This document shows, piece after piece, positions 25,906 to 58,249 of a stretch of DNA of 64,000 nt. The stretch comes from Thermoplasmatota archaeon. GTDB lineage: Archaea > Thermoplasmatota > E2 > JACPAO01 > JAHFTW01. Position 1 is the stretch's first letter; every line of letters begins with the position of its first letter. The position numbers were made by a program, and so were the translations under genes. The notes under the pieces were generated by a model, which saw only the letters and a list, made by a program, of their open reading frames with translations, was not told the DNA's origin and did not search any database. The stretch is taken from assembly GCA_041659985.1 (NCBI GenBank), contig JBAZXE010000002.1, positions 4,714 to 68,713 on the forward strand, given 5' to 3'.

Positions 25906-26598
25906 TCAGACCCAGGACAGGATCAAGTCGACGGCCGCGTCGAGGTCAGGCACGATGGCGACGTAGGGGACGCCCTTGCGCCGAGCATGAGCTTCCAGGT
26001 TGGCCGCTGAATAGGTGGTGGCGAGCAAGATGGCGGGGATGCCGAACCCGGCTGCGGCCTGCGCATCCTTGAGTTTGTCCCCAATCATGACGGCGCGGGC
26101 CTTGTTGACGAAGCGGCCCTCGGAGGCAAAGGCGGCGGCGCCATCCTCCAGCATGCCGGAGTTGGGTTTGGTGCGGCGGTGGCTGAGGAGCGGATGCGCG
26201 AAGGCGGCCTCGATGTGGTCGAGTCGGCCGCCATGGGCTTCGAGTTCCGCCTTGAACTGGCGGTGCAGGCGGTGGATCATGCCAGGCGTCGCGGTGAGCA
26301 GGCCGACCCAGGGCTGGTTGGTGGCGAGGCTGGTCTGGATGCCGGGTTGGTTGAGGCGGGCGAAGGCCTCGCGGGCGCCGGGAAGCCAGCGCAGGTTGCG
26401 GTAGAACCGCAATCCAAGGAGCGGGTTGACGTTGAAGACGCCGTCGCGGTCGAGGAACACCGTGAACAGGGATTGTCCGGATTCTTTGCGCGATTTGCCG
26501 GATTTCCTCTTCCCTGCGACCGGTTTCGGCTGGGCTTTGCCCGCCGACCCTTCGATCCTCATCTGTGCGGGTCGGCGCGCGGCCTTTTTGGCCATCAC
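25906..26598 (-). CDS. HAD-IIIA phosphatase (GmhB / histidinol-phosphatase-like) with a basic N-terminal tail
   Basis: FLDRDGVFN...ATNQ...RRTKPNSGML...MIGDKLKDAQAA. Its start overlaps the folE2 stop (GTGATG). Confidence 0.8.
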   Translation of the reverse strand: MMAKKAARRPAQMRIEGSAGKAQPKPVAGKRKSGKSRKESGQSLFTVFLDRDGVFNVNPLLGLRFYRNLRWLPGAREAFARLNQPGIQTSLATNQPWVGLLTATPGMIHRLHRQFKAELEAHGGRLDHIEAAFAHPLLSHRRTKPNSGMLEDGAAAFASEGRFVNKARAVMIGDKLKDAQAAAGFGIPAILLATTYSAANLEAHARRKGVPYVAIVPDLDAAVDLILSWV

Positions 26599-41784: not shown

Positions 41785-41903
41785 GATTTCACGGATTGCC
41801 CTCCGGGCACTCGCCGCTTTGGATTCCGCAGATTAGGGGAACTCCACAATCTGTGGAATCAGGTCCGCATGACGGCCCGGAGGGAGCGGGAATCTGTGGA
41901 ATC
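41785..41903. repeat. nested inverted repeats, GATTCCGCAGATT variant of the box family
   Basis: GATTTCACGGATT 41785, GCCCTCCGGGC 41798, GATTCCGCAGATT 41822 / AATCTGTGGAATC 41848, CCCGGAGGG 41876, AATCTGTGGAATC 41891. It lies between convergent gene ends. Confidence 0.7.
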
Positions 41904-53213: not shown

Positions 53214-53285
53214 GGCACATTTCTGTGCCAAATCCGTATTGTCTTCTGGCCTTATTAAGGCTATCTAATGGCCATTTATTGGCCA
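53214..53285. promoter_or_regulatory. operator-like palindrome plus A/T-rich boxes upstream of etfB
   Basis: GGCACA-TTTC-TGTGCC at 53214-53229, then GGCCTTATTAAGGC / ATGGCCATTTATTGGCC (53247-53285), 60-130 nt upstream of the etfB ATG. Confidence 0.4.
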
Positions 53286-53344
53286 AAAGCGCTGTGCAAT
53301 GGCCCTTCAGCGTTTTCAACCAAAGCCCCGTCGCAGCCACGCCC

Positions 53345-54112
53345 ATGACCAAGATTGCCGTCCTAGTCAAGATGGCTCCCGACGTGAGCCAGCTCAAGAT
53401 CGACCCGGCCACGCAGGCGCCGAAGATGGATGGTCTGCCGTGGAAGGTCTCCGACTTCGACAAGAACGCCATCGAGGCTGCAGTCAAGCTGAAGGAGAAG
53501 GGCCAGGCGACGAAGATCACGGCCTACACCTTCAATGGCGGCCCCAACGTCCTCAACCTCATCAAGGAGCCGCTGGCCATGGGCTGCGACGAAGCCGTCG
53601 TCCTGTCCGGCCCCGACACCGACGGCGCCGGCATCGCCCGGGTCCTCGCCGAAGCCATCAAGAAGAACGGTGCCGACCTCGTCTTCGCCGGCGAAGTCTC
53701 CATCGACCGCGTGGCCGGCGAAATCGGCCCCCGCGTCGCTGCCCTCCTCGGCATGCCGAGCCTGGTCAACACGCAGGAAATCCACGGCATCGAGAACGGC
53801 GCCCTCAAGGCCACCCGCGACGGCGAACCCGGCGAGACGGTTCTGGTTCCGATGCCATGCGCGGCGACGTTCAACGACGAGGCCAACCACCCGCGCCTGC
53901 CCGCCCTCATGGCCATCCTGCAAGCCGGCAAGAAGCCCATCCGCCAAGTCAAAACCGCCGACCTCGGCATCGCCGACGCCACCCTCGCCCGCCGCATGGC
54001 GATGACCGGCAACAAGGCCCCCAAGCAGGAACGCAAGGGTATCCTCTTCTCCGGCGCCGACGCCGCGGAGCAACTCGTGGCGGCGCTTCGCAAGGAGGGG
54101 GTCGCGCAATGA
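53345..54112 (+). CDS. etfB: electron transfer flavoprotein beta subunit
   Basis: Trimmed to MTKIAVLVKMAPDVSQLKID...DLVFAGEVSIDRVAGEIGPRVAALLGMP. Confidence 0.9.
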   Translation: MTKIAVLVKMAPDVSQLKIDPATQAPKMDGLPWKVSDFDKNAIEAAVKLKEKGQATKITAYTFNGGPNVLNLIKEPLAMGCDEAVVLSGPDTDGAGIARVLAEAIKKNGADLVFAGEVSIDRVAGEIGPRVAALLGMPSLVNTQEIHGIENGALKATRDGEPGETVLVPMPCAATFNDEANHPRLPALMAILQAGKKPIRQVKTADLGIADATLARRMAMTGNKAPKQERKGILFSGADAAEQLVAALRKEGVAQ

Positions 54113-54954
54113 CGACGATTCTCGTTTGGTCGGACGACGCCCGCACGCTCGGCGAGCTCACGGCCAAGGCCGCCACGTTCGGCACCGCGCAATCCTTCGA
54201 CTCCGCTGGTCTGCCCGACCAAGACTCCGCTACGTTGGCCCTCGGCCTGGCCGACGCCGCCAAACAATGCGGCGCCGCGCTGGTTCTAGTGGGCGCCACG
54301 AAGAAGGGCAAGGACGTCGGCCCACGCACCGCGGCCCACCTCGACTGGCCCTTCGCCTCGGAATGCCAGGCCATCGCTCAGTCCAACGGCTGGACCGTCG
54401 AGCGCATGGTCCTGTCGGGGAACTCGAAGGCGACCTACACGATGGGCGCCAACGCGGTCTGCACCGTCATGGGCAAGACCTTCGAAGGCTCCGCACAACC
54501 CGCCGGCAAGGTCTCCGGCTCCGCCGCAGCGAGCAAGGTCAACGTCGTCGGCAAGAAGGAAGAGAAGCACTCGGACTTCGACCTCGGCTCCGCCCTCGTC
54601 GTGGTCGGCGTCGGTCGCGGCTTCAAGCAGAAGGCCGACATCAAGCTCGCCGAGGACTTGGCCAAGGCGTTCCCCGGCGGCGCCGTCGGCTGCAGCCGCC
54701 CCGTCGCGGCGGACCTGAAGTGGCTCGGCGAAGAACACTGGATCGGCCTGTCCGGCCACGCCATCAAACCCAAGGCCTACATCGCCTGCGGCGTGTCAGG
54801 CCAAATCCAGCACATCGCCGGCATCCGCGGCTCCAAGCTCATCGTCGCCATCAACACGAACAAGGACGCCCCCATCTTCGGCGTCGCAGACTACGGCATC
54901 ATCGGCGACCTCTACCAGGTCCTGCCCAAGATGACGCAGCTGCTCAAGCCGTAG
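54109..54954 (+). CDS. etfA: electron transfer flavoprotein alpha subunit
   Basis: The ATG overlaps the etfB stop (ATGA). VVVGVGRGF...GCSRPVAADLKWLGEEHWIGLSGHAIKPKAYIACGVSGQIQHIAGI. Confidence 0.9.
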   Translation: MTTILVWSDDARTLGELTAKAATFGTAQSFDSAGLPDQDSATLALGLADAAKQCGAALVLVGATKKGKDVGPRTAAHLDWPFASECQAIAQSNGWTVERMVLSGNSKATYTMGANAVCTVMGKTFEGSAQPAGKVSGSAAASKVNVVGKKEEKHSDFDLGSALVVVGVGRGFKQKADIKLAEDLAKAFPGGAVGCSRPVAADLKWLGEEHWIGLSGHAIKPKAYIACGVSGQIQHIAGIRGSKLIVAINTNKDAPIFGVADYGIIGDLYQVLPKMTQLLKP

Positions 54955-55007: not shown

Positions 55008-55802
55008 GTGCAATCCTGTGCTGTGCGAGCGTGGACTGTTGCCGTGGCCGGGCTTTGTTTGGCCCTTGCGTCGAGCGGGTGTCTTGGCTCCGGCGGCGGC
55101 CTGTTCGGCGACCAGCCAGGCCCGCGTGATTTCGTCTCCAGTGCCGACTACACCAAGTGGGTCATCGAAGTGGACTTCGTCCAGGGCCAGGCCCCACCTG
55201 CAGGCGTCCTCGATTTCGTGAAGGGACGCCTGGCTGCGGTCGTCGACAAGCCGGACGGGATCGAGGTGCGCATCGACGAGACGCTCCCCACCCGCGGCGG
55301 GACATGGACGCAGAACGACCTGTTGGACCTCAGTGACGCGCACTTCCAGGCCGACACGTCGGGGAAAACGGCCGCCATCCACCTGCTGTTTGTGGACGGC
55401 TCCTACGACCAGGCCAACGTCCTGGGCGCTACCTTCAGCCGGGAGAGTGCCACCGGCCAAGTGGTCTCGACTGGCCCCATCGTCATTTTCTCGCAAGCCA
55501 TCCGCGACGGCTGCGGCCCAATCTGCCTTAGCGGCACGACGCCGGCGTTCCGCTCGGTCATCGTCCATGAATTCGGCCATGCCATCGGCCTCGTCGACAA
55601 CGGCATCGCCATGGTGCGCCCGCATGAGGCATCCACTTGCGGGAATCCGCCCCGGCCCGACGAGGGACACTCCTCGAACAGCGAATCCGTGATGAATTGC
55701 GACGTCGAGACCAGCGGCATTTTCAACCTGGCCAATGAGCCACCGACGGAGTTCGACTCCAATGACAAGGCCGACTTGTGCGCCGCCGGCGGTCGCTGCT
55801 GA
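55008..55802 (+). CDS. lipoprotein with a metzincin-type zinc site (HEFGHAIGLVD)
   Basis: GTG 55008/55023. Signal VAVAGLCLALASSGC. HEFGHAIGLVDNG = HExxHxxGxxD (snapalysin-like third ligand). Several Cys. Confidence 0.65.
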   Translation: MQSCAVRAWTVAVAGLCLALASSGCLGSGGGLFGDQPGPRDFVSSADYTKWVIEVDFVQGQAPPAGVLDFVKGRLAAVVDKPDGIEVRIDETLPTRGGTWTQNDLLDLSDAHFQADTSGKTAAIHLLFVDGSYDQANVLGATFSRESATGQVVSTGPIVIFSQAIRDGCGPICLSGTTPAFRSVIVHEFGHAIGLVDNGIAMVRPHEASTCGNPPRPDEGHSSNSESVMNCDVETSGIFNLANEPPTEFDSNDKADLCAAGGRC

Positions 55803-55897
55803 TTCGCCGGATTCGCCGAGGATTTGGCGGATAATGGAGCAGTCTTGGCCAACCGACGCAGCCGAATCCCTCGAATCGAGTTGAAATCCGGCAAATC
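55800..55897. repeat. four-box GATT/AATC dyad element, stop-codon anchored (plus-strand gene)
   Basis: TGATTCGCCGGATT, where TGA 55800-02 is the metzincin stop. Boxes at 55801 and 55821, then AATCCCTCGAATC 55865 and AATCCGGCAAATC 55885, with 20-nt spacings. It ends 12 nt before the next GTG start. Confidence 0.85.
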
Positions 55898-55909
55898 GTT
55901 CGCCGCCTT

Positions 55910-58249
55910 GTGGCGAACGAGTGCCCGAACTACCCAGACCAGCCGTGCCGGGTCAACCTGGACCTCATGCCCGGGGACACGGCGTTGTGGATGTACCTCC
56001 TCACCGCCGTCGCGTTCGCCGTCTTCCTCTACGGATTCTATGAGATGGTCAAGGTCTGGCACCTCGGCAAGCCGTTCAAGCCGGTGTCGTGGAAGGTCGG
56101 CCTCCCCCGCCTCGTGACGGCGCTGGCCACCCACCGCAAGTTCCAGCAGCAGCCCCGCCCCGGAACGATGCACGCCTGGGTGTTCTTCGGCTTCGTCGTC
56201 CTGTTCATCGGCACTGCAATCGTCGCCATTGACGCCGACCTCTTCGAGCACTTCCTCAAAGCGAAGCTGCTCTTCGGCAAGCCCTACCTCGTCTACGAAT
56301 TGGTCCTCGACGCCTTCGGCGTGGTGTTCCTCCTTGGTGTGGCCTTCCTCTTCATGCGACGCTACGGTGAGAAGCCGCCGCAACTGCACGCCTGGCCGCG
56401 CCCGGAGGCCCCGAAGTGGCTGCGCCTCGGCGGCGACTCGTACGCCCTGGTGTTCCTCTTCGGAATCGGTGTGACGGGCTTCCTGCTCGAGGCGATGCGC
56501 CTGCGCTACCAGGTCATGCATGACGGCATCACGTACGCGTCGTGGAGCTTCGTCGGCAACGCCATCGGCCTCGCCATGTCCGGCGCCAACGAGACCCAAC
56601 TCTTGGCGGTCTACCCAGTGGTTTGGTGGACCCACTTCGCTTTGTGGTCGTCCGTCCTCGCCGTGCTGCCGTGGACGAAGTTCAAGCACATCGTCACGTC
56701 GAGCCTCAACATCTACTTCCATGACCCGGCGCGGCAGAGCCGCCCCGAGTTGCCGACGCCGTTCAACCTGCCCAAGATGATGGCGGACAACGTGACCGAC
56801 TTCCCCGCCGTCGGCGTTGCGACGATTCGCGACTTCACCTGGAAGGACCGCCTGAGCTTCGACGCCTGCACCAACTGCGGCCGCTGCGAATCGATGTGCC
56901 CCGCCTCGGCAGCCGGCCGCCCCCTCTCGCCGCGCAAGCTCATCCAGGACCTCAAGGCGGAGATGTGGCGCGACTACCGCCAACATGGCTCCGCCGTCAA
57001 GACCGACCCGCGAGCGGGCGCCGGCAACGTACCGCACATGGTTGGCACCGCCAACGCCGGCGCGGCCGACAACACCGGTCCTGCAACCGGGCCACGCAAA
57101 CTCATGTCGGCCGACGGCATCGGCACGGCCCTGCAGGAAGCCACGCTGTGGAGCTGCACGACCTGCCGCGCCTGCGTCGAGGCGTGCCCCGTCGACATCG
57201 AGCACGTCGACCTCATCGTCAGCATGCGCCGCGCGCTCGTGATGGAATCGAAGCTGGACGAGAACCAGCAGCGCCTCCTGGTGAATCTCACCAACTCCGG
57301 CAACCCGTACGGCTTCCCCGCCTCGGACCGCGCCAACTGGACGGCCAAACTGCCCGATGGTGTTTTCGTTCCGACGGCGGCGGAGAAGCAGGCGAAGGGC
57401 GAGAAGGCCGAGTACCTGTGGTGGATTGGTTGCTCCGGCTCCTTCGACCCGCGCAACCAGCAGGTGACGCGCGCCGTGGCGACGCTGCTCAACGCCGCAA
57501 AGGTGGATTTCGCCATCCTGGGCAACGAGGAGCGCTGCAACGGTGACCCGGCGCGCCGCATGGGCGAGGAGGGCCGCTTCCAGCAATCCGTCATGGAGAA
57601 CCTCGTCACGTTCCAGCAATACCAGAAGACGTTCGGCCCCGAGGGCGCCGAGGCGCCGACGATGAAGATCATCGCGCAGTGCCCCCACTGCTTCAACACG
57701 CTGGGCAACGAGTACAAGGAGTTCGGGGCCAACTTCGAGGTCGTCCACCACACGCAACTCTTGGAGCGCCTCATCGACGAGAAGCGCATCCCTCTCAAGG
57801 CTGGCGCCGAGCTCAAGATCACCTACCACGACTCCTGCTACCTCATGCGGCACAACGGGGTCGCCGACGCGCCGCGCAACGTGCTGCGCAAGGCCAACAA
57901 CGGGCTGCCCGTGCTGGAAATGGCGCAGAACAAGAAAGACGGCCTGTGCTGCGGCGCGGGGGGCGCCAACATGTGGTACGAGGTCAAGCCCGAGGGCGAA
58001 CGCATCAACGTCATCCGCGCCAAGCAAGCGGCGGACACCGGCGCCGAGACGGTGGCGACGGCGTGCCCCTTCTGCCTCACCATGATGACGGACGGCCTCA
58101 ACCTCACCGGGCAGGAAGGCAAGATGCAGGCGCGCGATTTGGCGGAGATCCTGCTCGACCACCTCGACTGGACGCCGCCGGCTCCCCCGGCGCCGCCGGT
58201 GACGGAGGCTCCTCCCGAGGTCGGCGGGGGCGGCGGCTGGTCGGGATAG
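55910..58249 (+). CDS. membrane Fe-S oxidoreductase: NarI/DsrM-like b-type membrane domain fused to an HdrD/GlpC-like 2x[4Fe-4S] + 2xCCG domain
   Basis: N-terminus has 5-6 TM helices with conserved His. CTNCGRCESMCP and CTTCRACVEACP. CCG repeats: IGCSGSF...CNGDP and HDSCYL...CCGAGG...CPFC. Confidence 0.85.
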   Translation: MANECPNYPDQPCRVNLDLMPGDTALWMYLLTAVAFAVFLYGFYEMVKVWHLGKPFKPVSWKVGLPRLVTALATHRKFQQQPRPGTMHAWVFFGFVVLFIGTAIVAIDADLFEHFLKAKLLFGKPYLVYELVLDAFGVVFLLGVAFLFMRRYGEKPPQLHAWPRPEAPKWLRLGGDSYALVFLFGIGVTGFLLEAMRLRYQVMHDGITYASWSFVGNAIGLAMSGANETQLLAVYPVVWWTHFALWSSVLAVLPWTKFKHIVTSSLNIYFHDPARQSRPELPTPFNLPKMMADNVTDFPAVGVATIRDFTWKDRLSFDACTNCGRCESMCPASAAGRPLSPRKLIQDLKAEMWRDYRQHGSAVKTDPRAGAGNVPHMVGTANAGAADNTGPATGPRKLMSADGIGTALQEATLWSCTTCRACVEACPVDIEHVDLIVSMRRALVMESKLDENQQRLLVNLTNSGNPYGFPASDRANWTAKLPDGVFVPTAAEKQAKGEKAEYLWWIGCSGSFDPRNQQVTRAVATLLNAAKVDFAILGNEERCNGDPARRMGEEGRFQQSVMENLVTFQQYQKTFGPEGAEAPTMKIIAQCPHCFNTLGNEYKEFGANFEVVHHTQLLERLIDEKRIPLKAGAELKITYHDSCYLMRHNGVADAPRNVLRKANNGLPVLEMAQNKKDGLCCGAGGANMWYEVKPEGERINVIRAKQAADTGAETVATACPFCLTMMTDGLNLTGQEGKMQARDLAEILLDHLDWTPPAPPAPPVTEAPPEVGGGGGWSG

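Follow-up and report, generated by a model that had tools for sequence, protein, structure and literature searches.

A stop-codon-flush palindromic box array in a Thermoplasmatota archaeon as a probable gene-less derivative of a GxxExxY-nuclease cassette

We analyzed a 97-base element at positions 55801-55897 of a 64,000-nucleotide (nt) stretch of DNA (the window; C2:4714-68713) from a Thermoplasmatota archaeon genome, here called G000 (2.35 Mb, 66.6% G+C, 151 contigs, 87.8% complete). The element lies between a gene for a zincin-like putative lipoprotein and an iron-sulfur (Fe-S) oxidoreductase gene and consists of four short boxes in two inverted arms. We assign a probability of roughly 0.7 to the reading that it belongs, as a gene-less copy, to a family of palindromic box-array elements, the gene-carrying form of which, at C13:21236-21732 of the same genome, encodes a GxxExxY nuclease. 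The element is probably selfish DNA and not a dedicated regulatory signal, although a preliminary description of the window had argued for a function tied to transcription or translation of the upstream gene.

The boxes belong to a family with the consensus GATT[CTG]G[AC]CGGATT, which has 19 matches in the window against 0.33 expected. When one mismatch was allowed, we found 268 boxes in 118 clusters across G000. In the usual copy, a pair of direct boxes with 19-21-nt spacing is followed by a 2-53-nt loop and a pair of inverted boxes; there are 37 full copies with this '++--' arrangement and none with '--++', and half elements also occur. A 13-nt box such as GATTYGMCGGATT is a direct GATT-N5-GATT repeat that is not itself palindromic and carries no GTAG or CGTC tag. 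Within an arm the GATT offsets are 0, 9, 20 and 29, about one per helical turn, so that each two-box arm amounts to four CGGATT-type units phased at 9/11/9 nt, with the two arms mutually inverted. The sequences between the boxes are not shared among copies: arm spacers were unique in 97 of 100 arms, their pairwise identity equaled the expectation from composition, and loops were unrelated. A literature search with the sequence word AATCTGCG returned only primers.

To place the family in its genus, we used a comparison set of 13 genomes (G000-G012), which are incomplete metagenome-assembled genomes. The boxes are abundant only in G000 and sparse in G006, G009 and G012. The closest relative, G003, has a shifted consensus, GATTCAGC[CG]GATT, at all of its copies (loci L002 and L028-L032), including the one orthologous to the zincin/Fe-S site, suggesting that the family changes in concert within a species.

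A search of G000 for '++' and '--' arms with more than a loop between them led to C13:21236-21732, where four perfect boxes, arranged as a '++' arm and a '--' arm, enclose an intact gene. A plus-strand gene ends in a TGA flush with the '++' arm, 429 nt with a G+C content of 58% come next, and the '--' arm lies 10 nt before the following gene. The insert encodes a GxxExxY protein of 128 amino acids (aa) (PF13366, E = 2.7e-34; TIGR04256, E = 1.2e-36) that keeps every invariant residue of this PD-(D/E)XK-fold family, including D69, E79 and K81; no solved structure was detectable for it by sequence. Its closest homologues, with 80% and 83% identity and from two independent metagenomes, occupy the same locus between the same box arms. 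A homologue with 59% identity has AATTTGCCGAATT arms, the one found at this locus in G006 (53% identity) has CACAGATT units, and three G000 paralogues (48-51% identity) are framed by still other unit types. Over 100 loci, protein identity correlated with arm-unit similarity (Mantel r = 0.37, p <= 0.0005), a correlation to which shared ancestry of the loci contributes as a partial confounder. Judged from these sequences, nuclease and arm units diverge together.

The same design extends well beyond this locus. All 13 genus genomes contain PF13366 genes (1-8 per genome), and almost all of these genes are flanked by inverted arrays in which two or three units repeat with a 9-10-nt period, each paralogue having its own unit. 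A related-locus search seeded by a four-sequence alignment yielded 80 loci of this design in many phyla, among them Bacteroidota, Planctomycetota, Chloroflexota, Acidobacteriota, Verrucomicrobiota, Cyanobacteriota and an Asgard archaeon, with [C(G/A)CAGATT]x3 - gene - [AATCTG(C/T)G]x3 as the commonest cross-phylum form. We then defined framing strictly, as a 6-mer that recurs with an 8-11-nt period upstream of a gene and whose complement recurs downstream; 33 of 112 PF13366 loci were framed in this sense, compared to 5 of 2041 G000 genes. A looser measure (a 6-mer occurring at least three times in the flanks) was dropped, since its background was 51% in this GC-rich genome. We found no published description of box-array elements derived from GxxExxY (PF13366) cassettes.

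Several further repeats in G000 deserve mention in their own right. Parallel families (for example at C19:16446) have gene-less copies too, namely 77 CACGGAW pairs, 21 CCGCGGA pairs and 11 CAGATT pairs; the CACGGAW pairs carry a conserved AACAAGGA terminal module, and each parallel family resembles the arms of another GxxExxY paralogue. In the window, positions 41785-41903 hold a copy made of GATT-N5-GATT boxes of the CACAGATT, CGCAGATT and CACGGATT types. Arms or whole elements are also read through in frame, at window positions 26471-26504 (C2:31184-31217), C49:3706-3739, C24:25879-25915, C24:27648-27757 and C7:16005-16078. At the first of these, KSGKSRKESGQS is read near the N-terminus of a 231-aa protein; QSGKSAKESGKS is read inside UvrA, at the same place in G012 as in G000. 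One full element lies in frame in the linker of a 1686-aa polyketide synthase/fatty acid synthase (PKS/FAS)-like protein, and another codes for the last ~30 residues of a 288-aa protein.

At the site under study, the TGA stop codon of the zincin-like gene (55800..55802, plus strand; gene end ...GGT CGC TGC TGA) supplies its GA as the first two bases of box 1. Box 1, the outer box of the left arm (GATTCGCCGGATT, 55801..55813, plus strand), matches the consensus perfectly and is followed by the spacer cgccgag (55814..55820), which is not conserved between copies, and by the inner box 2 (GATTTGGCGGATA, 55821..55833, plus strand), which has two departures from the consensus. After a 31-nt loop (55834..55864) that is unalignable with the same-site loops of G009 and G012, the right arm begins with the inner box 3 (AATCCCTCGAATC, 55865..55877), which reads GATTCGAGGGATT on the minus strand with one departure from the consensus. 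The spacer gagttga (55878..55884) and the outer box 4 (AATCCGGCAAATC, 55885..55897), a perfect match on the minus strand, complete the element, and 12 nt (gttcgccgcctt, 55898..55909) separate it from the GTG at 55910. The geometry given in the preliminary description was exact: the TGA overlaps box 1, the two box starts of an arm are separated by 20 nt, and 12 nt lie between the last box and the GTG.

The flanking genes form part of a cluster on the plus strand. An etfB-like gene (53279..54112; electron transfer flavoprotein (ETF) domain, Pfam PF01012, E = 2.5e-28) and an etfA-like gene (54109..54954; ETF and ETF_alpha domains, Pfam PF00766, E = 4.4e-28, plus PF01012) precede the zincin-like gene (55008..55802). 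The latter, called a metzincin gene in the preliminary description, carries the motif HEFGHAIGL in its translation and has an uncertain start; with GTG 55008 as the start codon, the product would have a signal peptide whose lipobox reads LASSGC. This protein matched no Pfam or NCBIfam family above threshold, Pfam giving sub-threshold hits only (Peptidase_M10, E = 0.013). The Fe-S oxidoreductase gene (55910..58249) encodes a 4Fe-4S dicluster domain and two CCG domains by Pfam, and its GTG start is conserved in relatives. An exact-protein look-up of the Fe-S protein found no other strains.

The Fe-S protein was found in 12 of the 13 genomes, and in 10 of these 12 the zincin-like gene lies directly upstream of its gene. 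Wherever the locus reaches far enough, etfA is again found upstream of the zincin-like gene, giving the order etfB-etfA-zincin-FeS. This conserved order indicates that the protease gene is a stable member of the cluster and not a recent insert, contrary to the preliminary description, which called it inserted. Nor does the element travel with the protease gene, a question that the same description had raised for orthologous etf clusters: seven congeners have the protease gene without the element at this site, and four species have both. The site is empty in G005, G006, G007 and G011, where 38-52 nt without boxes separate stop from start and a CTTAAG-like motif stands ~27 nt before the start; G001, G002 and G008 have longer stop-to-start gaps, also without the element.

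The four species with the element at this site are G000, G003, G009 and G012, and the junction is flush in the first three. G009 has the TGA fusion, the same gagttga spacer and, before the GTG, a counterpart of the 12-nt segment (gttcgccaccgc) that is the same at 9 of 12 bases. G003 has boxes of its own variant (GATTCAGCCGATT), and G012 has the junction TAG-gcg-GATT with a CTTATAG promoter motif kept downstream. Several boxes are decaying at this and other orthologous sites; at this one, the outer helix of G009 retains 8 of 13 pairs by hand count, with changes that are non-compensated. In the element-bearing species the zincin-like protein ends in ...C-x5-C, with two gained cysteines, a common end which suggests that the four probably form one clade. 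The alignments of this site indicate that the element arrived once, at the gene end and after the protease gene, and that the junction has since shifted by a few bases between species. No target-site duplication was apparent in the comparison of filled and empty sites, in which the CG found at either flank more plausibly belongs to the CGGATT unit. Two comparisons of G003 with G000 for insertion boundaries gave no clean boundary: one region was unalignable, and in the other the G003 element comes right after an unchanged stop codon, at which G000 has a stretch of similar length without recognizable boxes.

The right arm also bears on the start of the Fe-S gene. Across the regions upstream of 1428 G000 start codons, A+T content peaks between -29 and -25 and, less strongly, at -34/-33 and -10, suggesting that most transcripts are apparently leaderless with a TATA-like box (CTTAAG type) near -27. 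The sequence TTGAAAT at 55881-55887, formed by the end of the gagttga spacer and the first bases of box 4, occupies -29 to -23 of the Fe-S start and is also present in G009; no Shine-Dalgarno-like sequence was seen before GTG 55910. By position and composition, TTGAAAT is likely the TATA-like element of a leaderless Fe-S promoter, which the right arm would overlap. The original promoter stretch would then be gone, with the right arm now covering the position expected for a leaderless promoter.

A second site speaks to mobility. The 3' end of a conserved 194-aa gene beside a ksgA-like methyltransferase gene is a hot spot (C13:20653-22657 and loci L158-L169): G000 has its CGGATT cassette there, G006 a CACAGATT cassette and G012 a CAGATG cassette in the opposite orientation, while G005, G002 and G001 have gene-less arrays and G010 is empty, with a 52-nt gap. 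The other nucleases at this site have 44-53% identity to the G000 nuclease. On these sequences, the occupants of the site look like independent insertions into one gene end.

We examined the relation of the boxes to coding sequence across the genome with a rough codon-usage gene caller (2286 genes, 88% coding). The TGA of 33 genes overlaps a sense-oriented box, compared to ~0.1 expected when 268 boxes are placed randomly against 2165 stops; ~22 further genes have a box 2-12 nt past the stop, and antisense boxes beside stops are rare. Arms facing a gene's 3' end lie within 12 nt of the stop codon in 47 of 58 cases, compared to 10 of 40 for 5'-facing arms, and of 18 full copies located between tandem genes, 16 are no more than 8 nt away from the stop codon of the upstream gene. 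Arms that face a gene's 5' end cluster either 42-47 nt from the start, leaving room for a promoter, or 2-16 nt from it. The stop-abutting rule holds on either chromosome strand, bearing out the suggestion that anchoring follows the coding strand, and genome-wide the other copies keep a consistent orientation relative to the upstream gene. Since the element is near-palindromic, however, "orientation" really means which of its ends abuts the stop codon. The present copy had also been taken for the only full copy on a plus-strand gene; this holds inside the window, but genome-wide we counted 10 full copies between plus-strand gene pairs, every one no more than 4 nt from the upstream stop.

The bases at the junctions suggest how the fusion is built. 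The intrinsic outer terminus of the element is CG-GATT, and among 5'-facing arms 70% have C at -2 and 58% have G at -1. Among the 58 3'-facing arms, 31 have T in place of the terminal G, and 26 of these T residues belong to an in-frame stop; other junction types are stop+CG+GATT and TAG sharing its G with the box. At the flush zincin/Fe-S junctions of G000, G003 and G009, T stands where the CG-GATT terminus has its G, so that TGA is built from the box's own GA. Orthologous junctions differ, both at the zincin/Fe-S site (TAG-gcg-GATT in G012 vs. TGATT) and at a site shared by C73 of G000 and C11 of G009 (TAG-cg-GATT vs. two extra codons plus TGATT), which indicates that flush junctions can arise or vanish after insertion. 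The CACGGAW family of G000 stays 5-30 nt past stops and is not flush, which argues that general intergenic shrinkage is insufficient to produce flush junctions. Flush junctions may stem from GA microhomology at insertion, from a deletion ratchet that preserves the stop codon or from a real link to translation termination.

In the scenario that we favor, the nuclease would read the phased units as a multimer and would cause the arms to spread or to be maintained, along the lines of a repetitive extragenic palindromic (REP) sequence and its REP-associated tyrosine transposase (RAYT) or of the Ssn/NTS systems, and gene-less copies would persist passively. The present element would have been inserted between the stop codon of the zincin-like gene and the Fe-S promoter. 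Any effects on the neighboring genes (an mRNA 3' hairpin, insulation or promoter supply) are putative and secondary.

A number of observations weigh against a nuclease-cassette origin. Of 20 copies in relatives, at least 10 occupy sites orthologous to those of G000 copies, including the in-frame uvrA arm shared with G012, so that much of the box family was inherited and not newly inserted; the family is mostly old. No two copies share spacers or loops, which argues that simple recent copy-and-paste was not the source of the ~100 copies. Boxes are still recognizable in G009 and G012, although a search of both genomes found no cassette with CGGATT arms (nor was one found in G006); to explain their persistence, one must suppose gaps in the assemblies, selection acting on the boxes or slow decay. 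Nor does the cassette model by itself account for the extreme excess of stop-flush junctions. Finally, a 128-aa PD-(D/E)XK nuclease cannot carry out transposition by itself, and movement of the elements and binding or cleavage of their arms are putative.

An alternative is that the boxes are host punctuation of gene ends. Here they would bind a host factor or a domesticated GxxExxY protein, at the DNA or at the mRNA 3' end, would mark or terminate transcription units and would be held by purifying selection, the fusion to the stop codon arising because they must be located at the terminating ribosome or at the end of the transcript. The strong anchoring to stop codons on both strands speaks for this reading, and so does the conservation of the boxes and of their 19-21-nt spacing beside randomized spacers and loops, both between copies and between species at orthologous sites. 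G000 is also without oligo-T terminators (T runs of at least 5 follow only 3.5% of genes), so some other end signal must exist, and Escherichia coli REPs within 15 nt of a stop codon have been reported to affect translation (PMC12306157). However, the element is present at only ~55 of 2165 gene ends, and the box family is nearly confined to one species, its closest relative having a shifted consensus. Copies also occur in frame inside genes such as uvrA and beside gene starts, seven congeners with the same gene pair do without the element at the zincin/Fe-S site, and boxes are decaying there and at other orthologous sites. We consider punctuation unlikely as the explanation of the family.

We think it very improbable that the family consists of REP/REPIN sequences or of insertion sequence (IS)-derived MITEs (miniature inverted-repeat transposable elements) moved by a RAYT or other transposase missing from the incomplete assembly, with the GxxExxY gene an unrelated passenger. 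The extragenic palindromic doublet architecture (118 clusters, 37 full copies), the species-specific drift of the consensus in G003, as in REP families, and an assembly that is only 87.8% complete are compatible with such an origin. Yet Y1_Tnp (PF01797) was found in none of the 13 genus genomes, these being incomplete and Y1 transposases the only ones searched for, while control genomes were positive. The 13-nt box is neither palindromic nor tagged with GTAG or CGTC, no target-site duplication is evident, and nuclease and arms co-diverge, unlike a passenger gene and its surroundings.

At the RNA level, full copies as a class fold well (median z = -4.15), a result that the inverted boxes produce by themselves. 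The copy studied here ranks among the weakest, with z = -1.07 when folded with its flanks against dinucleotide shuffles and z = -1.77 in the class-wide folding. No covariation between paired boxes (outer with outer, inner with inner) was detected at the two variable box positions (27 matches against 28.6 expected and 30 against 32.3, with shuffled partners as the expectation), and boxes of the same arm were more alike than expected (75 vs. 59.7, p = 0.003). Rfam gave no match on the element nor on 20 cassette loci. There is no T run within or after 55801-55897; T runs of at least 5 follow 1 of 48 element-bearing gene ends compared to 3.5% of other ends, but oligo-T is so scarce at G000 gene ends of any kind that this comparison tells little. 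Separately, we observed that G000 3' flanks are C-rich on the sense strand over the ~20 nt past the stop (C 35-45%). We conclude that the boxes are most probably not an RNA structure under selection. A plain hairpin selected at the RNA level, whether as an intrinsic terminator or as an mRNA-stabilizing stem-loop, would fit the good folding of the class and its position at 3' ends, but given the missing covariation, the weak fold of this copy, the non-compensated loss of pairs in G009, the persistence of half elements and the lack of a U tract past the elements, we give it hardly any credence.

A dedicated signal in transcription or translation of the upstream gene is likewise unsupported: genes on both sides of the element see the same box orientation, the paired boxes do not covary, this copy folds weakly, and the element appears to derive from a nuclease cassette. 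Our analysis replaces two ideas about this locus, that of a recent protease-gene insertion and that of the repeat as a dedicated signal for the upstream gene.

More broadly, it is possible, though we hold this tentatively, that GxxExxY proteins are sequence-reading nucleases of an undescribed, cross-domain class of tiny mobile or self-maintaining elements with phased-array ends. Here, such elements would have been absorbed into gene architecture, supplying the TGA for ~33 genes and lying over leaderless promoters, with boxes staying recognizable across species since they are still read by the cognate nuclease or by the host. The GxxExxY/PF13366 proteins form a very large family without an assigned function, and the terms GxxExxY and PDDEXK_3 are rare in the literature searched. 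Our results offer a hypothesis for the family, in which each nuclease would recognize the 9-11-nt phased units framing its own gene and gene-less arm copies would populate gene ends. They also illustrate that dozens of archaeal genes can take their physical stop codon from REP-like "junk" and that such a repeat can fill the whole space from a stop codon to a putative leaderless promoter. Stop-fused repeats of this kind matter for gene calling, for operon prediction and for the reading of intergenic conservation.

Two bacterial systems come closest to the arrangement described here. REP, bacterial interspersed mosaic element (BIME) and REPIN sequences, with their RAYTs (PMC3733652, PMC2817692), are short, high-copy extragenic inverted doublets with a species-specific consensus. 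As in REP/RAYT systems, one protein gene is framed by repeats on which it is thought to act, and many copies lie near stops. Unlike REPs, our box is not self-palindromic and has no GTAG or CGTC tag, each arm is an array of direct units in phase, the gene between the arms encodes a PD-(D/E)XK-fold GxxExxY protein instead of a Y1 transposase, spacers and loops are not copied between family members, and the host is an archaeon. The Ssn GIY-YIG single-strand nucleases, described in bacteria only, are framed on both sides by dispersed hairpin-forming NTS/SRM repeats (PMC11893778). The present family shares with them a small nuclease gene flanked by, and statistically associated with, a repeat that has many copies around other genes, and repeat variants that track nuclease variants. 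It differs in its PD-(D/E)XK rather than GIY-YIG nuclease and in its phased multi-unit arms in place of a single hairpin.

More distant parallels exist in the ends of larger elements and in repeats that enter genes. The inverted repeat/direct repeat (IR/DR) ends of Tc1/mariner elements of the Sleeping Beauty type, like the ends of Tn7 and Mu, hold several phased direct protein-binding repeats per inverted arm. The box element likewise has at least two direct repeats in each of two inverted arms, but it is far smaller and has neither a transposase nor a target-site duplication that we could see. Rickettsia palindromic elements are palindromic repeats readable in frame inside protein genes, as the box element is in uvrA and in the PKS/FAS-like gene; however, they are not known to come with a nuclease gene or with arrays of phased units, both of which the box family has. 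We therefore class the element at 55801-55897 as most likely a GxxExxY-nuclease cassette derivative without the gene, resembling REP/RAYT and Ssn/NTS systems while having the defining features of neither.

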